Shown piece by piece: positions 16,612-46,934 of a stretch of 46,934 nt of DNA. Origin of the DNA: Verrucomicrobiota bacterium. Its GTDB lineage: Bacteria; Verrucomicrobiota; Verrucomicrobiia; Limisphaerales; DASXHY01. The position numbers and the translations under genes were made by a program. The notes under the pieces are model-generated. The model was not told the origin of the DNA. It did no database searches and saw only the letters and a program-made list of their open reading frames with translations. How positions within the stretch are numbered: the stretch's first letter is position 1; each line of letters begins with the position of its first letter. The stretch is from the NCBI GenBank assembly GCA_051960355.1, contig JBQCEJ010000013.1, positions 1-46,934 on the forward strand. Direction: 5' to 3'.

Positions 16612-16720
16612 AAGAAACTCCCGTGCGCTGTTTGCTTTGGAATGGGCCGGTTCTCTGCTTTAGCCAGTGAAGGCGCTCAGTTTACGCGAGGCAGCCTGCT
16701 GGCAGAACCATGGCTGAGGC

Positions 16721-16736
16721 TCCCCGTTTTCGGGGT
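16721..16736 (+). promoter_or_regulatory. Palindromic site F (TCCCCgttttcGGGGt) upstream of the EEP-GH92 unit
   Basis: One of five TCCCC-N6-GGGG(A) cores. It lies 140 nt upstream of the ATG at 16877 and shares GGCTCCCCGT.TTCGGGG with site C. Confidence 0.35.
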
Positions 16737-16876
16737 GTGGTCAGCGGCCGCCGTTCTTGGATAGAGTTCTTGCGCAGGGCGGACTCGCTGCGGATCTCAG
16801 GCCGTGGAAGTGGACGGCAACAAGCCCGGAGTGGAGAGCTAAAAATCGCCTGCGCAGGAAATCGCTAAGCCATCAA

Positions 16877-20217: not shown

Positions 20218-20330
20218 AAACGCGGGCGGTGTGGAAAGGGTGCCGCACCTGGAAAACTGGCAAACGGGACGTTCGATAATTATTTGACTGGCGCGACTTT
20301 TGAGGCAGTTATTGAGCATTGAAACGAGCC

Positions 20331-20346
20331 TCCCCTCATTCGGGGA
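20331..20346 (+). promoter_or_regulatory. Palindromic site A (TCCCCtcattcGGGGA) within the 25-nt hairpin GCCTCCCCTCATTCGGGGAATAGGC (20328-20352)
   Basis: Exact palindrome 158 nt upstream of the PATR gene ATG. It is preceded by TTATTGA (20309-20315) at the same spacing as at site C. Confidence 0.4.
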
Positions 20347-20504
20347 ATAGGCACGGTTGCCGAGGCTGCTAGTGTCGTCACATGTTTCTACCCTATCCAA
20401 TCCAGCGCAAAGCTGGATGCGATCGGGAAGTGTGGGGCAACCGGCTGATGGCGCAGGGGGGCGACGTGCGAGTTCTGGCCAGCGGCTCAAATACAAAATC
20501 CAGC

Positions 20505-23500
20505 ATGAAAAGAATAACCCAAAACAAACCAATCCGCGTGTGTGACCTGAAATCTATCAACCAAAACGGAACCCGCCGCCCGGGCCCGTCGTGCAGGAAA
20601 CTGGCTTCGCTCGCCCTCGCCGCCGCCGCCCTCTTGACGGCCGCCAAATCCTCAGCGGCGCAATTGACCTGGGACGCTGGCAACACGAGCAACGCGGGCA
20701 CCGTTGATCCGGCCAGTGGCGCGTGGAATACGGACACCACCACCAACCTGAATTGGAACAACGGCAGTGGCAATGTGAGTTGGACTCAAACCAGCGTCAC
20801 TGCCGGGCTAAACGGCGCGACCTTCGCCGGGCCAGACGCCGCCGCGGGCACGTATCAAATTGCGCTGGATGGTTCCCAGATTGCATTCACCAGTCTTGCC
20901 ATCAATGCCAACGGCTATGAGTTTAGCGGCGCGCTGCTGTATCAGCCTGCTTCGAGTGCGATTTTATCGATCGCCGATGGGGTCAGCGTGACCTTCAATA
21001 ACAATATTTCCGGGCCCAACAATTCACTGTTCTGGCGGCTGGGTGCGGGTGGTTCACCGGCGTCCATGACTTTCCTGGGCAACTTCACGGGCGGCCAGTT
21101 TGCCTTTTGCAGCACCAACGGCAGCACCCTTTGGCTGGGCGGATCGGGAACTTCGTCGGGCGGGGTGAATACCATCAATGCGAACGTCATCCAGACCAAT
21201 GGCACTTGGAATAATACCGGCACCTGGCAGGTGGGCCGTCCAAATCAGCCGTCCGGCACTCCACAATCACTGGCAGGCAATGCCGCTTTCCCGGGCGTAT
21301 TCACATTGGATGGCGATAGCGCGGTGTTGAACCTGTCGCAGCAGATGCAAATTGCGCGCGGTGGCGGCATGGGAAAGGTGATCATCAAGAAGGGCGCAGT
21401 GAATCTGACGGCGGCGAGCGTGAACGCCACCATCCAAGTGCTGAACGATGGCAGTGCCGGGGGCCAAGGTTTCTTCTCCATGGAAGGCGGCACGATGAAC
21501 GTGGGAAGTTCGGGCGCTGCTGGCGTGATTGGTCTGGCCAAAGCGGGTGCGGGGACAAATTCCCAGGCGGTCTTTGCACAATCGGGCGGCATTATTAAAG
21601 CCTGGGGCGGCGTGAGCATCGGCGCGTCCAGCGGCACGTTTAATAGCGCCAGCCTCAGCGCCTTCACCAATTCCGGCGGCTTCCTCTATGTGGGCAATGT
21701 GGGTGGCGTCGGTATCACTCGCTACGCCTCCGCACCGGGCACGAACTATTTCGTCCTGTCCGGCGGCACGATTGGAGCCTTGCAAAGCTGGATCTCAACC
21801 ATGCCGATGACGCTCGACACGTTGAATGGTAACATCACGTTCCAATCTGCGGATGACGGTGGCTCACCGTTCAACATTTCGCTTTCCGGCGCGCTCACCG
21901 GCCCGGGCGGACTTTACAAGACGGGCGGCGGCACGCTGACCTTGAGCGGGGCCAACAATTATGCCGGCAGCACGGTGATCAGCAACGGCGTCCTAAAAAT
22001 TGTGCCGTCTGCCTCTCCCACCAACGGCCTGCTGACCTTGGACGGCTCGGCGGGTTCGCCCACCTTGACGGTCGCGCCGTCGGCGGCGGGCCAGTTTATG
22101 ACGGTCAATGGCAACCTGACCTACGCGGCGGGCACGGTGACGGCGAACTTTGACTTTGGCGCATTGCCGCCCAGCACCAGCGTGGCTCCGATTCAAGTCG
22201 CGAACAACGTCGCTTGCACGGTCACTCCGGACTTTGCCATTGAGGGCAGCGCCATCGCCGCGGGCACGTATCCGCTCATCAAGTACGGCGGCATCGTCAC
22301 AGGCAGCCTGCCCGCAACGCCGACGTTGCTGCCGACCTCAACGTTGGGTTATATCACCAACATCACCACCACGAAGACGATCGCCTTGGTGGTGACCAGT
22401 TCGCCGGTATCCGCCGCGCTCACCTGGCGGGTCGGCAGTGCTGATTGGGGTCTGATCGCCGCCGAGAACTGGAGCCTGTTTGGCAGCCCGGTTAGTTATA
22501 CCGAACCCAACGCGGTGCAATTGGATGACACCGCCAGCGGACCTTTCCCCATTACAGTGAGCGCCGTCACATCGGTCAGCCCCAGCGCAATCACAATTCT
22601 GAGCACAAACGACTGGACGATCGCCGCCAATGGCGGCTCGATTGACGGCTCGGGCAGTTTGACCAAGGCGGGAAGTGGCACGTTGACCCTTTCGGGCGCG
22701 AACACCTACGCGGGTGGCACCACGGTCAGCGGTGGTCAGTTGAATATCAACAACGGCGGCAACAGCTCTGCCGATTCAGCCATCGGCACCGGGCCGCTCA
22801 CGCTGGGTTTGGGCTCCGAGATTGACAATACCAGCGGTCAGGCGGTCACCTTGCAGCCCACCATTGCGCAGAATTGGCAGGACGACTGGACCTTTGTGGG
22901 CAGCACCAATCTGAATCTCGGCGCTGGTGCCGTTACGCTGGGCAGCAGCGTTGTGGTGCTGACAGTGTCCAGCGGCGAACTGGAGGTGGGTGGTTCCATC
23001 TCCGATGGCGGGAATGCTTACAAGCTAGAAAAGGCGGGCGCTGGCGCTCTGACGCTGGGTACTGACAGCTTTTTTACCGGCGGCATGCAGTTGGATTCCG
23101 GTCTGTTGCAGCTGAAAACGGCCAATGGTTTGGGAAGTGGTACCTTCACCATCACCGGTTCCGCCGCAATTGACAATCTAAGCGGAGCCGACATGACCCT
23201 GAGCGGAATTTCCGGGGTTGTCTTGCCGAGTAGTGCCACCATTACCTATCTGGGCACGTCGAATAACCTGGACTTCGGGATTGTGGCCGTTAACCAAGCC
23301 AGCCAGGGAACCAAGGTCTTGAACGTGGTCAGCAACCGCCTGACCTTTGGTGGTCCTTTTGTCTCTGGAAATTCCACCATGGTCAAAATCGGCCAAGGCA
23401 CGCTGGTTCTGGCTGGCAGCGCTTCGGGAAATCAAAGCCAGTTCGTCGGTGAGGTCAACGAAGGTGTGCTTGAACTTGCCCATGATTTTGGTTCAGCCAT

Positions 23501-24101
23501 TGGCACCGGCAACTCAGGCGATGGCATTCTGGTGCAATCGAATGCCGTGGCCAGACTGACTGGCACGCTGGCAAATCAAATCCCGAATGATGTGGAGACG
23601 AGGCTAAATGCCGGCGGCGTCTTTGATATGAACGGCAACAGCGAAACCATCGCCTTGCTGCGCATGACGAACGGCGTGTTGCGCAATGGTCTGGCCGGAA
23701 CCGCTTCCACGTTGACTACCGTCAATGGGAATGGGGTCATCCTTAGGAAGACAGATAACGTGTTTGACGTTCCGGATGCAGCCGCAAGCCTGACTATTGA
23801 CGGCAATGTCACGGGCCCGGGTTCATTGGTGAAATCCGGGGCGGGTGCTGTCACCGTGCAGGGAACCAATACCTACAGTGGCAATACCACCGTCAGCAAC
23901 GGAACCCTGACCCTCAACTTCCCCCTGCTTTCAACCAATTCCACCGTGCAGATCGACACGAACGGGGTGCTGAACCTGAACTTTGCCGGGGGAGAAACCA
24001 ACACCGTGGCCGCGCTCGTTCTGGGCGGGACGAACAAACTGGCGGGAATCTATAACGCGACGACCGATCCAACTTATCTCAACGGCTCAGAGCCTGTCTG
24101 A
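20505..24101 (+). pseudogene. Autotransporter-associated beta-strand repeat (PATR) giant secreted protein, 5' portion truncated by an IS insertion
   Basis: Signal peptide after the ATG at 20505. Many GGGTLTLSGANNYAGSTVISNGVL / GSGTLTLSGANTYAGGTTVSGGQL repeats. The reading frame runs into the IS left inverted repeat, which supplies the TGA at 24099-24101. Confidence 0.85.
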
Positions 24102-24986
24102 AAAAGGAGAAAGTGCTTGATTTTGTTGGTGGGTTGGTTGGTTTGTTATCGCGGTAGCGCCAGTGAGGCGATGAAAATCGCCAATTACGACACTGACCTG
24201 ACTGACGCCCAATGGACTTATCTCAAACCGATGCTTCCCAAGCCCGCCAAACGCGGACGCCCGACCAAAGATCGGAGGCGGATCGTTGATGCCATCCTCT
24301 ACCTCGTCAAATGCGGCTGTCCCTGGCGCTATCTGCCCGCCGACTTCCCCAACTGGAAAACCGTTTACCACGTCTTCCGCCAATGGGTCGCCAGCCATTA
24401 CTGGGCCGTCATTCACGACGCACTCCGCGTTCTGGTTCGCAGAACCCACGGCAGGTGCAGCCGTCCCACCGCCGCCGTTCTGGACAGCCAAAGCGTCAAG
24501 TCCTCCGGGCATGGCGGGCGCGTCGGCTACGACGCGGGCAAACGGATCAAAGGCCGCAAACGGCATCTGCTGGTGGACACTCTGGGATTGATTCTCGCGG
24601 TCACCGTCACTCCGGCCAGCACCACCGAACGGGACGGAGCACAATTGCTTTTGAAACCAGTCCTGGGCTGGCTCACCTGGTTGCGCATCCTGTGGGTGGA
24701 CGGCGGCTACAGCGGCGAAGCCTTCGCCCAATGGGTCAAGAATCTTCGCCCCAAATTGGCCGTTCAGGTAGTCAAACGTTCCGATGCCACCAAGGGGTTC
24801 AAGGTGTTGCCCCATCGCTGGGTGGTGGAGCGGACCTTTGGCTGGTTGATGCACCACCGCCGGTTGGTCCGCGATTACGAAACCACCGAATCCAGCGCCG
24901 AAGCCTGGATCTACATCGCGATGATCCGCATCCAACTCCGCCGCCTCGCTTGACCCCCAATCACTCATGATTTTTCAGACAGGCTC
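24090..24986 (+). mobile_element. Intact IS5-family insertion sequence (897 bp)
   Basis: Perfect 16-bp terminal inverted repeats GAGCCTGTCTGAAAAA (24090-24105) and TTTTTCAGACAGGCTC (24971-24986). A 3-bp TCA direct duplication flanks it (24087-24089 and 24987-24989). It carries a single DDE transposase ORF. Confidence 0.9.
24171..24953 (+). CDS. IS5-family DDE transposase (260 aa, uninterrupted)
   Basis: The ATG at 24171 follows GAGGCG. LTDAQW..L.P.LP, RGRP, CPWRYLP, AVLDSQSVK, LWVDGGYSG and VVERTFGWL are typical IS5/DDE_Tnp_1 motifs. Confidence 0.9.
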   Translation: MKIANYDTDLTDAQWTYLKPMLPKPAKRGRPTKDRRRIVDAILYLVKCGCPWRYLPADFPNWKTVYHVFRQWVASHYWAVIHDALRVLVRRTHGRCSRPTAAVLDSQSVKSSGHGGRVGYDAGKRIKGRKRHLLVDTLGLILAVTVTPASTTERDGAQLLLKPVLGWLTWLRILWVDGGYSGEAFAQWVKNLRPKLAVQVVKRSDATKGFKVLPHRWVVERTFGWLMHHRRLVRDYETTESSAEAWIYIAMIRIQLRRLA

Positions 24987-24989
24987 TCA

Positions 24990-28357: not shown

Positions 28358-28577
28358 CGCAGGCCTTGTCTGCTGTATCGCTGGCTAATCAACCTGCCAC
28401 GTGATAACCTCGCGACGCGCTGCCGATTTGCAAACCGGCGCTACAGCACGTTGTGAAACGCTGCGCTACAAGCTTTGGAAGGTCTGTGCCTAATGCTGGG
28501 TGAATATCCGGGCTAAGCCCGCTCTGATCGCCCTCTGACGATTTTCTACTGCATTAAGTGTTTAAGCCCGTGCGGCC

Positions 28578-28593
28578 TCCCCCCTTTCGGGGA
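28578..28593 (+). promoter_or_regulatory. Palindromic site B (TCCCCcctttcGGGGA) within the hairpin GCCTCCCCCCTTTCGGGGAATAGGC (28575-28599)
   Basis: Exact palindrome 80 nt upstream of the ATG at 28674 (17 nt upstream of the alternative ATG at 28611). Confidence 0.4.
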
Positions 28594-28673
28594 ATAGGCA
28601 ATCCAGCGGTTTGATACATGATATGGCTATGAATCTTGGTTATCCCGATCAACCACACACTGGCATTGGTTCC

Positions 28674-38241: not shown

Positions 38242-38329
38242 CTTGCGCGATGTGAAGTTTTCGGAAATTCGCTGATCTGTGCGGGCCGCAGGCAAGGACT
38301 GGTTTTGCTTTCCGTTTCGTTCGCCTCCA

Positions 38330-38345
38330 TCCCCGCAAGTGGGGA
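38330..38345 (+). promoter_or_regulatory. Palindromic site D (TCCCCgcaagtGGGGA, followed by AT)
   Basis: Exact palindrome 62 nt upstream of the sulfatase ATG at 38408. Flanking CGCC/GGCG could extend the stem. Confidence 0.35.
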
Positions 38346-38407
38346 ATGGCGGAAGGAATAATTTTCATCATCCTGTTCGCATACTGACGCAAACCAATCC
38401 CACCAAA

Positions 38408-43052: not shown

Positions 43053-44834
43053 ATGAGCTTTCTGAAACATGAGAGTGGTTGCGGTTTTCTGAGGGCAATG
43101 TTGAGTCTTGGAGCAGTTGCCGCTGCGTCGCTCCTGGCTGTGCCAGCGGCCATGGCCCAGAGCCACCGGGATTCCCCGCCAGATTATTCCTCCAATTCCA
43201 AGGACCAAAACCCAGAGTTGACGTTGCGTTCGGTCAAAGTCAACGACCGGGAATTGCAGGGCGTTTCCATGGCGGGGGTGGACCTGCCGGCGCACCCTGG
43301 AGTTACCAGCATCTCCTTTGGCCCCAACCGGGGCGTTTCGAATGGGCCGATCCGGTTTCGCTGCCAGCTCGACGGTTACGAGTCGGTCTGGCATGAACGT
43401 TCGGTGGTAATGCGGCTGTTGATCCGGTTCATTGATGCCAACGAGCGGGACATCGCCGAGCAGATTTTTACCGTAAGCGGGGAAAGCCCGGGGTGGACAG
43501 GCAATTTCAACGATTCTCCCTGGGTTCATCGGAAAGAACTCATCACGGTCCCTCCGAATGCCGTGCGATTCTGGGTGGTGATTTCCTCGGCAGGACCGCC
43601 TGAAGCGGTGGGGGTTTTTGCCGTGCGGAACCTGAGGGTGTGGCCGTCTCGGAGCGAGACTAACGGGATTTTGATGATTCCCCCGGTGGAGCGCGAGGCC
43701 AGCAAAGCGGCGATTGAAGCAACTGAAGTATCGCCCGTGGGGTGGGGGCGGGCGGGTATCCGGCCGGACGATGCCCGTCTCGTGCGCTGCGGCCCGGGTT
43801 CGGAGGTGGCGCTGGCCATTTTCGATGATCATCCGCTGGGTCATGCGGACTGGGGTACGGCGAAGGCACGAGGGCCCAAACTCACGCCGGGAGAAACGCT
43901 GACGTTAAAATGGGAGGAGGTCTACAGCATTGGTCCGGCGGATTATGGCGTGGCGCTTTACACCAATCTTCCGGCAGGACTCTACCGATTTCGGATGGAA
44001 GCTTTGGACCTCATGGGGATTCCGAGCGGGCGCAATATTTCCTTCCCGGTGACGGTGCCGGTCGCGTTTTGGAGAACGGTTTGGTTTTGGGTGACTGCCG
44101 GGGTGGCATTGGTTGGGCTGGCGGTTGGCAGGTTGCGGCTGGTCGAGGCGCAGAAGATGAAGCGTCAGGTCCAGAATCTCGAGCGGCAGCGGGTGCTGGA
44201 GCAGGAACGTTTTCGAATTGCGCAGGACATCCACGATGATTTGGGCGCGCGGGTGGCGCAGATTTCCCTGTTGAGTTCTGCGGCGGAGGAGAAGGAATCG
44301 TTGTCCGTCGCCGAGGCGAGGGTGGAACTGGGCATGGTTTCACGGATGAGCCAGGAACTGGTGGCGGCGTTGTATGAAACGGTTTGGGCGGTCAGCCCTG
44401 AAAACGACCATCTGGATTCGCTGATCAGTTATGTCTGCCAAGTAGCGGATCAGATGTGTGCCGCGGCCCATTTGAAATGCCGCTTTGAGATGCCGGACAT
44501 GGCGCCGGCCACTTTTCTGCCCAGCAATATCCGGCACAACCTGATCATGACCATCAAGGAAGCCATTCACAATGTGATCAAGCATGCGCATGCCTCGGAG
44601 ATTCAGATCCGCATTCAGCTCGCGAGTGGAGTGTTGCGCGTTCAAGTGAGCGACAACGGCTGCGGCTTCGATGTCGGGTCCATCGTTCGCGGCAACGGTC
44701 TGGACAATATGGAGCGCCGGTTGCGTTCGATGGGCGGACGCTGTTCAGTGGAGAGCCAGCCCGGGGCGGAAACTCGGGTGAAAATCGAGCTGCCCTTGCC
44801 GGGTTTAACTTCAATTCCTCCCCAACCCAACTAA
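43053..44834 (+). CDS. Sensor histidine kinase (HisKA_3 + HATPase_c) with an extracytoplasmic Y_Y_Y-like sensor region
   Basis: Signal/TM segment, then a ~330-aa outer domain ending YTNLPAGLYRFRMEALD...PVAFWRTVWFWV (Y_Y_Y-like, followed by a TM helix). H-box RFRIAQDIHDDLGARV. ATPase motifs VSDNGCGF and GNGLDNMERR. Confidence 0.88.
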   Translation: MSFLKHESGCGFLRAMLSLGAVAAASLLAVPAAMAQSHRDSPPDYSSNSKDQNPELTLRSVKVNDRELQGVSMAGVDLPAHPGVTSISFGPNRGVSNGPIRFRCQLDGYESVWHERSVVMRLLIRFIDANERDIAEQIFTVSGESPGWTGNFNDSPWVHRKELITVPPNAVRFWVVISSAGPPEAVGVFAVRNLRVWPSRSETNGILMIPPVEREASKAAIEATEVSPVGWGRAGIRPDDARLVRCGPGSEVALAIFDDHPLGHADWGTAKARGPKLTPGETLTLKWEEVYSIGPADYGVALYTNLPAGLYRFRMEALDLMGIPSGRNISFPVTVPVAFWRTVWFWVTAGVALVGLAVGRLRLVEAQKMKRQVQNLERQRVLEQERFRIAQDIHDDLGARVAQISLLSSAAEEKESLSVAEARVELGMVSRMSQELVAALYETVWAVSPENDHLDSLISYVCQVADQMCAAAHLKCRFEMPDMAPATFLPSNIRHNLIMTIKEAIHNVIKHAHASEIQIRIQLASGVLRVQVSDNGCGFDVGSIVRGNGLDNMERRLRSMGGRCSVESQPGAETRVKIELPLPGLTSIPPQPN

Positions 44835-44836
44835 CT

Positions 44837-45490
44837 ATGTCGCTACAGAAAAATAATCCCAAGCTCCGTCGCGTGGCCGTGGTTGAGGACGACAGCGGGT
44901 TGCGAAACCAATTGGAGCGCATCCTTGATTCCGCCCCCGGAGTTTGCTGTGTGGGCACCTTCAGTTCTGCGGAGAAAGCGTTGGAGGGAATGGCCGCCGC
45001 CCAGCCCGATGTCATCTTGATGGATATCAATCTGCCCGGAATGTCAGGCATCGAGTGTGTCGCGCGACTCCGGAAAGAACTGTCGGTGGCCCATGTCATC
45101 ATGCTGACCATCTATGAGGACAGTGAGCGCATTTTTCAGGCGCTCCAGGCGGGTGCGGATGGTTATCTGGTCAAGGCCAGCCCGACCAAGACGTTGCTCC
45201 AGGCAATTGAGGACGTTTATATGGGTGGCTCTCCCATGTCCAGCCACATTGCCCGCAAGGTGGTCCGGCAATTTCGGCAGCCTGATTTTTCGCACGACGA
45301 AACCAAGAGTCTGTCGCCGCGGGAACGGGAGACGCTGGAGTTGCTCGCCGCCGGCTATGTGTACAAAGAAATTGCCGACAAGATGGGCATTGGCAGCGAG
45401 ACCGTGCGCACGTACATCAAAGGGGTTTGCAAGAAACTACATGTGCGCAACCGGATTGAAGCGGTCGCCCGTTATTCTGCCTTGAAATAG
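44837..45490 (+). CDS. Response regulator, NarL/LuxR family (REC + LuxR-type HTH)
   Basis: VAVVEDD, DVILMDINLPGMSG, LVKAS, then LSPRERETLELLAAGYVYKEIADKMGIGSETVRTYIKGVCKKLHV. Confidence 0.92.
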   Translation: MSLQKNNPKLRRVAVVEDDSGLRNQLERILDSAPGVCCVGTFSSAEKALEGMAAAQPDVILMDINLPGMSGIECVARLRKELSVAHVIMLTIYEDSERIFQALQAGADGYLVKASPTKTLLQAIEDVYMGGSPMSSHIARKVVRQFRQPDFSHDETKSLSPRERETLELLAAGYVYKEIADKMGIGSETVRTYIKGVCKKLHVRNRIEAVARYSALK

Positions 45491-45509: not shown

Positions 45510-45535
45510 CGTGCTCCAGGAGCGCGATTTTTCTT
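45510..45535 (+). terminator. Putative rho-independent terminator after the response regulator
   Basis: The stem CGTGCTC / GAGCGCG (7 bp including one G-U pair, 3-nt loop) is followed by ATTTTTCTT. Confidence 0.45.
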
Positions 45536-45616
45536 CGTTCCCCGGGCCGCGGGGTTCGTGGTGATGTTCCATTCCCCGGCGTTTGCTTTTGGTCTTATTG
45601 ACGTTCGGGAACAGGC

Positions 45617-45632
45617 TCCCCGTATTCGGGGA
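45617..45632 (+). promoter_or_regulatory. Palindromic site C (TCCCCgtattcGGGGA) within GGCTCCCCGTATTCGGGGAATAGGC (45614-45638)
   Basis: Exact palindrome 158 nt upstream of the ATG at 45791, the same distance as site A. It is preceded by TTATTGA (45595-45601). Confidence 0.4.
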
Positions 45633-45790
45633 ATAGGCGAGGTTTCCACGTTTTGCTTTGATATCGGTGGGTCCGATAAATTCAATTTCGCCCCGGAGTT
45701 GGGTGAATTGGAAAGGATGTGGTGGCAACCGCCTCTTGGACAAGGTTCGCGGTGCGAGCTTTGGTCCCAGGGCATAACAACTGAACCAAA

Positions 45791-46934
45791 ATGAAAAGAC
45801 CAACCTCAAAAAAGATCCTCGTGTGTGCCCTGCTGGGCTGCATGGTCGCTGGCCAGGCGATGGCGGCTACTATTCGCTACAAGTCAAGTGGTGACTATTT
45901 TGATACCACCAACGACACGGCTAACGCCAGAGGTTGGCAGAACACCACTGTCCCCGGCTGGGAAGATGTTGCCCGATTGAACTGGGGCGGCACCATTGGC
46001 AATGTCGTCACTTTGAACAGCGAGGCTCCCGAGGTGCTTCAATTCCAATTTGGCGTGGGTGAGTCCGGCCATTTGGTCATCAACAGCGGTGGCAAATTCA
46101 CCTCCACCGGCGCCATCAGCGGCAGCACGGTGGGCAACAACGGCGGCAGCACCATTTTCGGACGAATCACCGTGAACGCGGGGGGGGAGTTGCACGCGAT
46201 GACCGCCGCGATGCAGGTCGGCGTTGGTGCCACGGGAATGATCACCAACAACGGCGGCACGGTGAACGTTGACAGCCATCTTTGGGTTGGCAGCGGAAAC
46301 AGCAACAGCAATCCCGGAATCAACGGCACCATCGTCATAAAAAATGGCGGCGTGTTCAACGTGGGAGGCATGATCGGTTTGGGCACAGTCAATTCAACCG
46401 GTCCATCCGGCAACAAGGGTTTCGTGTATGTCCAAACCAATGGTGTTCTGAATCTGCACAACATTCAGGCGGCGGCCTCCACTAATCTGGACGGATCGGT
46501 TAACACGAATTATTTGGGATCCATTCAGCCCGGCTCGGTCCTGAATATCGCTGATAACGGCCTGGTCACCCTTCCTGGGAATTTCATCAATGTAATTAGC
46601 AACTATGTTACTGCCGGCAGAATCACCAGTTATGGGGGATTGGGAGCCGTGGAGATAAAAACGGTGGTAGATGCATTTGACGTAACCAATACATGGATCA
46701 CCGCGGTGGCACCTTTTTTGCCGACGGAAACCGTTTGGAATCCGGCAGGCAATCCATCCGGTACTGGCAAGTGGAATGAGGCTACCAACTGGACCAGCTC
46801 CGTGGTTCCGGCGGACGTGACCAAGGTGATCTTCAATGTGGAAGGAGCGAGTCCTTGCACTGTGACCAATGCGGCGGTGGCGAAGTACGTGACCATGGGC
46901 GATTCCGGTCCCGGCGGCATCCTGATCATTACCA
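45791..46934 (+). CDS. Secreted Gly/Asn/Thr-rich beta-helix-like protein, 5' part only (runs off the right edge)
   Basis: Found by manual translation; it is not in the ORF track because it has no stop. Sequence reads MKRPTSKKILVCALLGCMVAGQAMAATIRY... and stays open to the window end, as I checked by translating every codon from 45791 to 46934 by hand. An in-frame TGA at 45782-45784 bounds the start. The minus-strand ORFs here are shadows. Confidence 0.75.
   Translation, partial: MKRPTSKKILVCALLGCMVAGQAMAATIRYKSSGDYFDTTNDTANARGWQNTTVPGWEDVARLNWGGTIGNVVTLNSEAPEVLQFQFGVGESGHLVINSGGKFTSTGAISGSTVGNNGGSTIFGRITVNAGGELHAMTAAMQVGVGATGMITNNGGTVNVDSHLWVGSGNSNSNPGINGTIVIKNGGVFNVGGMIGLGTVNSTGPSGNKGFVYVQTNGVLNLHNIQAAASTNLDGSVNTNYLGSIQPGSVLNIADNGLVTLPGNFINVISNYVTAGRITSYGGLGAVEIKTVVDAFDVTNTWITAVAPFLPTETVWNPAGNPSGTGKWNEATNWTSSVVPADVTKVIFNVEGASPCTVTNAAVAKYVTMGDSGPGGILIIT

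Follow-up and report, generated by a model that had tools for sequence, protein, structure and literature searches.

Why should two genes that lie 25 kb apart and encode unrelated mature proteins be preceded by colinear regions of about 200 nt? This question is raised by a 46,934-nt stretch of a Verrucomicrobiota genome (GenBank assembly GCA_051960355.1, contig JBQCEJ010000013.1, positions 1–46,934 of the forward strand; hereafter the window), in which such a region precedes both gene A (20309–20507), a giant gene of the PATR/autotransporter-repeat type, and gene B (45595–45793), a gene of the PEP-CTERM type. The original prediction, made from the DNA sequence alone, saw in them a promoter followed by a long structured 5′ untranslated region (5′ UTR), possibly a riboswitch, an attenuator or the target of a small RNA (sRNA). 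The results presented below suggest that regions A and B each represent a copy of one portable regulatory cassette, which would consist of (i) an 18-bp inverted repeat placed directly against a weak sigma-70-type promoter (−35-like hexamer TAGGCA, with TAnnnT 16–17 nt further on), (ii) a non-coding 5′ UTR of approximately 120 nt, containing a hairpin of about 44 nt (P3) and then an unpaired A/C-rich stretch reaching the AUG, and (iii) the first ~15 codons of a signal peptide. As a whole, i.e. as a promoter cassette switched by a regulator and equipped with a conserved leader, this reading is considered fairly likely.

The region common to genes A and B

Direct reading of both regions confirmed their predicted coordinates and spacings to the base. 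Each opens with TTATTGA (20309–20315 in A, 45595–45601 in B), which is separated by 15 nt from a TCCCC-N6-GGGGA palindrome (20331–20346 and 45617–45632, respectively), and the latter lies 158 nt from the ATG (20505 and 45791). The distal blocks were found at 20430–20446 and 45717–45734, and the sequence GTGCGAG occurs 39 nt before the ATG in both copies (20466–20472 and 45752–45758). In the B copy, an in-frame TGA (45782–45784) is present upstream of the ATG.

Both local and global alignment of the 152-nt segments from motif to ATG gave z = 5.6, a score equalled or exceeded by only 0–1 of 1000 dinucleotide shuffles, and ungapped comparison of the two regions peaked at offset 0. The similarity begins at approximately position 20305 and ends about 45 nt inside the open reading frames (ORFs); beyond both limits identity is at background level. 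Comparison of the encoded proteins (BLASTP E = 0.086) revealed no homology past ~15 codons. Since the unit common to A and B comprises the promoter, the leader and the first ~15 codons, and the mature proteins are unrelated, simple gene duplication is excluded. The original prediction was therefore correct both in treating the two regions as a common promoter with a long non-coding leader and in dismissing a recent duplication of the genes.

TTATTGA is missing at the equivalent place in two further copies of the palindrome (C and D, described below) and in the promoter of an orthologous metagenomic locus, L060, and so is not part of the conserved element. It is common only to A and B, in which the duplicated cassette is bounded upstream by this heptamer. 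At the opposite end, the A/C-rich unpaired tail of copy A (20487–20504), together with the ATG and the first ~15 codons MKRITQNKPIRVCDL (20487–20549 in total, plus strand, as are all window features given here), matches copy B at the DNA level; the corresponding segment of B (45774–45835) contains the tail, the TGA, the ATG and the first ~15 codons MKRPTSKKILVCALL.

A probable operator palindrome, its promoter geometry and the linked regulator

The palindrome forms the core of an 18-bp inverted repeat whose spacer is rich in T and which is extended by AATAG towards the gene. This palindrome had been described as a motif shared by two genes; both do carry it, but it is not limited to them. The form CTCCCC-N6-GGGGAATAG(G/A)C is present in four copies in the 5-Mb, 88%-complete assembly, three of them on this 47-kb contig: A (starting at 20330), C (28577), B (45616) and D (contig C393:9188). 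Each copy precedes a gene start, and in shuffled versions of the window zero occurrences of CTCCCC-N6-GGGGAATAG are expected. The N6 spacing is specific, with 7 genomic sites at N6 versus 0–2 at N4, N5, N7 and N8.

Relatives of the element were gathered by a motif scan of metagenomes, an order-wide search for homologs of the regulator described below, and motif and covariance-model searches. The sites were oriented by a rule independent of the −10 element, namely that the spacer should contain more T than A. In 16 of the 26 oriented sites from this genome and its relatives, the start of TAnnnT is found 27–30 nt (in most cases 28 or 29 nt) past the first G of GGGGA, compared with 2.6% in other windows of four offsets and with 1 of 16 sites in the opposite orientation. 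When the sites found later by the leader model were added, TAnnnT occurred at +27 to +30 in 25/41. The hexamer that directly follows the palindrome (TAGGCA or TAGACA) resembles a −35 element and is separated from TAnnnT by 16–17 nt. The element is thus a dyad-symmetric site abutting the −35 at a fixed distance from the −10, as in class-II (lux-box) sigma-70 operators, and the dyad would span approximately −52 to −35, with its centre near −44.

Because the palindrome is located at this fixed distance upstream of the predicted −10 element, it is best viewed as a DNA operator, not as the leader hairpin originally proposed; the first ~70 nt after it, previously described as diverged, would correspond to the −35, the spacer, the −10 and the start of the transcript. 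The combination of operator and promoter is considered highly probable. The element is also directional, since in two loci with back-to-back operators (L100 and L145) the AATAG side of each copy faces its own gene. These pairs, in L100 (G171:C133, positions 305–353) and L145 (G180:C87), are placed 10 nt apart in opposite orientation between divergent genes, which in L100 are a prepilin-like and a sulfatase-like gene.

In copy A, the operator CTCCCC-TCATTC-GGGGAA (20330–20347, at about −52 to −35 of the predicted start) is followed by a core promoter (20348–20375) composed of TAGGCA (20348–20353), a 16-nt spacer and the −10 element TAGTGT (20370–20375), whose 28-nt distance from the first G is the modal value among the 41 sites; transcription would start near 20382. 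In copy B, the operator CTCCCC-GTATTC-GGGGAA (45616–45633) lies 126 nt past the stop codon of a response-regulator gene and beyond the terminator-like hairpin of that gene. Its core promoter (45634–45662) contains TAGGCG and a weak −10 candidate, TTTGAT (45657–45662, offset +29), without a perfect TAnnnT. It is the weakest of the four promoters and would direct transcription from near position 45669.

The genes directly upstream of B (43053–45490) encode a histidine kinase (43053–44834) and a response regulator (44837–45490), and the latter is proposed to read the operator. The kinase contains HisKA_3 and HATPase_c domains and gives a faint Y_Y_Y match. The regulator has a receiver domain (Response_reg, 1.1e-26) and a GerE helix-turn-helix (2.8e-15) and belongs to the NarL/FixJ type; its best NCBIfam match is NarL (137 bits, below the equivalog cut-off).

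Evidence for the link between regulator and operator comes from 29 loci (101 kb) picked solely by response-regulator similarity. These contain 13 copies of TCCCC-N6-GGGGA, compared with 0.14 expected (~90-fold enrichment), located either 110–190 nt downstream of the regulator gene, as in B, or 50–70 nt upstream of it, the second arrangement suggesting autoregulation. Moreover, the gene-side flank tracks the identity of the regulator: AATAG is found at ≥78%, AGTAG at ~71–72% and ATGG/ATAC at ~60%. The operator targets in relatives are FucP-like permease, GH92, sulfatase, prepilin-like and PEP-CTERM genes. Judging from this linkage, it is likely that the neighbouring NarL-type regulator binds the operator. 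A phosphorylated dimer of this NarL/LuxR-family protein would most likely occupy the repeat and recruit RNA polymerase in the manner of lux-box (class-II) activation, acting as an activator and not as a repressor.

The metagenome scan returned, among others of the relatives used here, L060 and also L058. L060 is syntenic with the window and contains a kinase (67% identical), a regulator (84%), the operator and a PATR ortholog. Comparison of A with this orthologous promoter showed that the sequence upstream of the palindrome, TTATTGA included, has been randomized, and that from the palindrome to the ATG identity is at approximately coding-region level and concentrated in blocks.

Several other searches defined the limits of the family. 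Blastn-short within the genome found no match past the palindrome, and the leader family was recovered only by profile and covariance-model searches. In 11 genomes of the same genus, BLAST with leader B gave no significant match and the exact-motif scan no site; for protein B these genomes yielded weak partial C-terminal matches in two cases (45–46% over ~70 residues) and no full-length ortholog. The lack of leader, motif and full-length protein B matches in the genus indicates that the cassette and its surrounding gene island are patchy or accessory. When 185,000 species genomes were scanned for the exact motif, the 12 matches obtained were at chance level and came from unrelated phyla, and an order-wide scan for TCCC-N7-GGGGARTAG was overall at control level, the real copies being grouped in a few genomes.

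Some additional observations concern the palindrome and the regulator. The TCCCC-N6-GGGGA core is also present inside longer perfect palindromes on contigs C227 (5318–5335; CATCTCCCC...GGGGAGATG) and C45 (3590–3607; CTGTCCCC...GGGGACAG), the C227 copy being placed between paralogs of gene B. An unrelated palindrome, TGGGG-N6-CCCCA, has 10 sites in the genome, and AGGGG-N6-CCCCT and ACCCC-N6-GGGGT have none. Downstream of a response-regulator gene in locus L083 (G170:C107), two tandem ATCCCC-N6-GGGGAT operators occur 131 nt apart, each followed after ~76 nt by an ATG and flanked by similar sequences (GGTGC(G/C)GAAAT(T)GC), an arrangement that resembles a local tandem duplication of a promoter unit. 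The terminator-like hairpin mentioned above (45510–45526; CGTGCTCCAGGAGCGCG, then ATTTTTCTTC; 45510–45536 in all) is situated 20 nt past the regulator stop codon and separates the two-component operon from promoter B. The NarL-type regulator family is expanded in this order: most genomes have at least seven matches at E ≤ 1e-40, each 50–60% identical to the regulator of the window.

The leader, hairpin P3 and the alternative explanations

Counted from the predicted start sites, the 5′ UTRs of A and B would each be ~120 nt long. That of the PATR gene (20382–20504, ~123 nt) contains a 5′-proximal hairpin, P1 (20400–20418; AUCCAGC/GCUGGAU), as indicated by folding and by block conservation with the L060 ortholog; P1 is common to A, B and the second L060 copy. 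The imperfect hairpin P3 of leader A (20443–20486) spans the blocks CAACCGGCT...GTGCGAG...GCCAGCGGC and gives covariance-model matches of 56.9–70.8 bits. In leader B, P3 (45731–45773) shows compensatory changes relative to A in its outer helix.

Covariance models of the distal blocks (R1, then R2) recovered 13 homologous leaders, representing at least four lineages (three GTDB families among them): A, B, two in L060, six in family f52 (G323, G419, G180, G411, G413 and G375) and three in family f25 (G114, G166 and G203). In 11 of the 13 cases the gene that follows encodes a protein of the MKxTTxKNSILVGALLG type, and A and the second L060 copy precede PATR genes. The leaders of f52 and f25 have been kept next to an operator flank of another type (GGGGATACC or GGGGATGGG), which indicates that the leader is a part of the cassette and not of one operator variant. 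The distal blocks are thus retained across distant relatives and form P3, as judged by the covariance models and RNAalifold. They are also non-coding, as the original prediction had stated, since they lie in a different frame from copy to copy with respect to the ATG, and 6 of the 13 leaders contain in-frame stops. For the same reasons, gene A was judged to have neither an upstream ORF nor an extended N-terminus (from an ATG at 20382).

In an alignment fitted to the model, 87.8% of the P3 cells of the 13 sequences are paired, versus 21–45% when the partners are slid, and 4 of the 15 pairs show changes on both sides. In the apical helix 3, where 95% are paired, substitutions of the 3′ arm are almost all pair-preserving, mostly G-U-compatible transitions. 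MAFFT alignment followed by RNAalifold recovered P3 de novo, without model fitting. Folding of single sequences gave P3 in most members and always left the last ~20 nt (CACAACAA...AAAAUG) unpaired; no Shine-Dalgarno sequence is present at the 3′ end. P3 is likely to be a conserved RNA hairpin, and the chance that it functions as an RNA is put at slightly better than even. Its most likely role would be to stabilize the mRNA and/or to keep the ribosome landing zone open; it could possibly also serve as a handle for a post-transcriptional factor (protein or sRNA).

The covariance-model check proposed for the structured leader gave 13 leaders with P3 pairing and a modest covariation. As to the riboswitch or attenuator part of the proposal, no match was found in Rfam 15 (four loci, E ≤ 1), leader A contains no intrinsic terminator, the one detected in B is weak and at chance level, and no fold sequesters the start codon or pairs the last ~20 nt before it. 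Consequently, a riboswitch-like function is unsupported, and the fold energies of both leaders (given below) are ordinary.

Several points weigh against the cassette as proposed. Promoters B, C and D have poorer −10 elements without a perfect TAnnnT, and a generic sigma-70 scan (≥9/12 matches) found no promoter in either region, a blank that is expected of activator-dependent promoters. Many of the sites are related by descent, so that binomial p-values calculated from site counts overstate their independence. The tie between regulator and operator is one of association only (enrichment and L060 synteny). As for P3, its covariation is 0.221 compared with 0.183 in shuffles, with 19/500 shuffles as high; the alignment used for the pair counts was fitted to the covariance model; the RNAalifold covariation term is just −0.14 to −0.5; and the fold z-scores are −0.5 (A) and −1.9 (B).

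Three other explanations were weighed against the same evidence. Were a ~200-nt riboswitch or attenuator leader to begin, at its 5′ end, with the palindrome as an RNA hairpin, TTGACG/TTGAGC would serve as the −35, and it is true that both match a −35 element well and occupy the same positions in A and B, that the palindrome RNA would fold at −12 to −14 kcal/mol and that the leader downstream is conserved and partly structured. However, C, D and the L060 ortholog lack TTATTGA/TTGA, sequence above the palindrome is not conserved, a −10-like hexamer is fixed 28–29 nt past the palindrome in most sites, and the palindrome also occurs with short leaders of 20–45 nt and before regulator genes; with no Rfam match, terminator or AUG sequestration in addition, this explanation is very improbable. 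It is also improbable that the motif is the promoter of an alternative sigma factor of the extracytoplasmic function (ECF) type or the site of another regulator. GGGGAAT is loosely similar to ECF −35 elements (GGAAC/GGAAT), and the helix-turn-helix of the regulator also scores on Sigma70_r4 models, but the downstream element is the housekeeping-type TAnnnT and not a CGT-type ECF −10, on which ground an ECF-type promoter was rejected. In addition, the motif is a true inverted repeat with a fixed 6-nt spacing and is enriched ~90-fold beside regulator homologs, and Pfam scans of the window ORFs revealed no ECF sigma or anti-sigma factor. Two further candidates were discarded as well: a sigma-54 reading of GGCACGGTTGCC, whose spacing is 9 instead of 12, and the palindrome as an intrinsic terminator, given the absence of a T-run after it.

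The remaining explanation accepts the operator and promoter and holds that the leader similarity was merely inherited through duplication of the cassette, the hairpin being incidental and without a function at the RNA level. The weak covariation and ordinary fold z-scores of A and B are compatible with it, as is the fact that copy D lacks the 5′ half of P3 and that C and the site at 38329 work, if at all, without this leader. On the other hand, the blocks have been kept in 13 leaders from at least four lineages in spite of differing flanks and downstream proteins; between A and L060 the leader has stayed at about coding-level identity next to a randomized upstream sequence; and the substitutions in the 3′ arm of helix 3 preserve pairing almost throughout. 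Inheritance alone therefore appears rather unlikely, and the operator-promoter cassette with a conserved leader is retained as the preferred explanation.

In L060, a degenerate copy of the whole cassette (925–1260, contig Ga0316231_1002024; ATCCCA-N6-GGGGAATAGCC, leader, P3 and ATG) is fused in frame before the histidine-kinase gene, where it provides an N-terminus beginning with MGKTSKSNL and adds 44 codons to the kinase ORF. This suggests transplantation of the cassette combined with autoregulation of the two-component system. A bolder extension is that the ~120-nt leader (P1/P3 plus the A/C-rich tail) represents an undescribed cis-regulatory RNA of Verrucomicrobia-like bacteria, sensing a ligand, an RNA-binding protein or an sRNA, and that together with the operator and first codons it forms a mobile expression cassette moved by recombination before PEP-CTERM, PATR adhesin-like and L060 kinase genes. 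In this full form the proposal is doubtful; if true, the leader RNA would add a post-transcriptional checkpoint to the two-component control of PEP-CTERM and PATR surface proteins.

The glycan island and related regulatory systems

The window constitutes a sulfated-glycan island encoding six sulfatases, a GH92 enzyme, a DUF5010/CBM protein and a SASA esterase. The same operator would head at least four transcription units, i.e. those of the PATR giant protein, the prepilin-like/sulfatase operon and the PEP-CTERM-type genes B and D. Two further candidates lie in the window, and the two-component system would accordingly be expected to switch on the whole island in concert.

In copy C (28577–28624), the operator CTCCCC-CCTTTC-GGGGAA is followed by TAGGCA and by −10 candidates. 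The prepilin-like gene behind it (ATG 28674) has a short leader devoid of P3 and is followed by a series of TIM-barrel, sulfatase, SASA, PhoD and esterase genes. A weaker candidate operator, CTCCCC-GTTTTC-GGGGTG (16720–16767, with TAGAGT at +30), is located before Exo_endo_phos and GH92 genes, and a full operator was found before a GH92 gene in a relative (G186). The second candidate, ATCCCC-GCAAGT-GGGGAA (38329–38374, with CATCCT at +28), precedes a sulfatase gene (ATG 38408), its orientation being ambiguous. Both would belong to the predicted regulon.

The lux box, a 20-bp palindrome centred near −42.5 at luxI, mediates class-II activation by LuxR. The present element resembles it in the GerE/LuxR-type regulator, in a dyad placed against or over a poor −35, in its constant spacing from the −10, and in a weak, activator-dependent core promoter. 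It differs in that the regulator is a phosphorylation-controlled response regulator and not an acyl-homoserine-lactone receptor, and in that the site, for which binding is predicted, is 18 bp long (5–6-bp arms, 6-nt T-rich spacer) and carries a directional AATAG extension. In Escherichia coli, NarL and NarP, members of the NarL/FixJ family, recognize 7-2-7 operators, with sites centred, for example, near −43.5/−44.5. The regulator family, a HisKA_3 kinase, inverted half-sites near the −35 and one regulator for several operons are common to both systems, whereas the half-site sequence and spacing differ, the signal here is probably a glycan and not nitrate, and the regulator has an expanded family here, with at least seven paralogs per genome in this order. 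The operator and promoter thus fall in the well-known class of NarL/LuxR-type activation and represent a conceptually ordinary switch.

The gene content resembles that of the Bacteroides hybrid two-component systems of polysaccharide utilization loci, since a kinase with a faint Y_Y_Y-type periplasmic module is found beside sulfatases, GH92, esterases and surface proteins, with a locus-specific regulon. Unlike those systems, this one has its kinase and regulator in separate proteins, uses GerE and not AraC as output domain and contains no SusC/SusD pair, the surface components being PATR, PEP-CTERM and prepilin-like proteins. The leader recalls the ompA-type leaders, whose hairpins stabilize or insulate, and those leaders of Bacteroides utilization-locus mRNAs that are targeted by proteins or sRNAs, in being a long 5′ UTR of mRNAs for abundant envelope proteins with conserved stem-loops above an unstructured ribosome zone; it differs in having no sequence relation to them and no Rfam family, and its function is a predicted one. 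No published description of this motif emerged from a literature search. As a candidate new cis-regulatory RNA that is not in Rfam, the 13-member leader motif has moderate support.

Gene regulation in uncultured glycan degraders of the Planctomycetes-Verrucomicrobia-Chlamydiae (PVC)/Verrucomicrobia type is almost unmapped. For a sulfated-glycan island, this locus offers an operator sequence, a promoter geometry (−10 at 28 nt from the dyad arm) and a candidate regulator-regulon pair. The joint travel of promoter, leader and start-codon region before unrelated secreted proteins may aid the annotation of start sites and regulons in metagenome-assembled genomes.

With respect to the remaining genes, an IS5-family transposase ORF (DDE_Tnp_1, DUF4096; 24087–24989) is located where the PATR gene fragment ends, and this element interrupts gene A, which is probably truncated in this assembly. 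Besides the PATR protein, the window encodes PEP-CTERM and prepilin-like DUF1559 proteins and gives a weak match to a "Verru_Chthon cassette", features that would fit a bacterium of the Verrucomicrobia type. The gene behind copy D is a PEP-CTERM paralog whose product is 51% identical to that of gene B.

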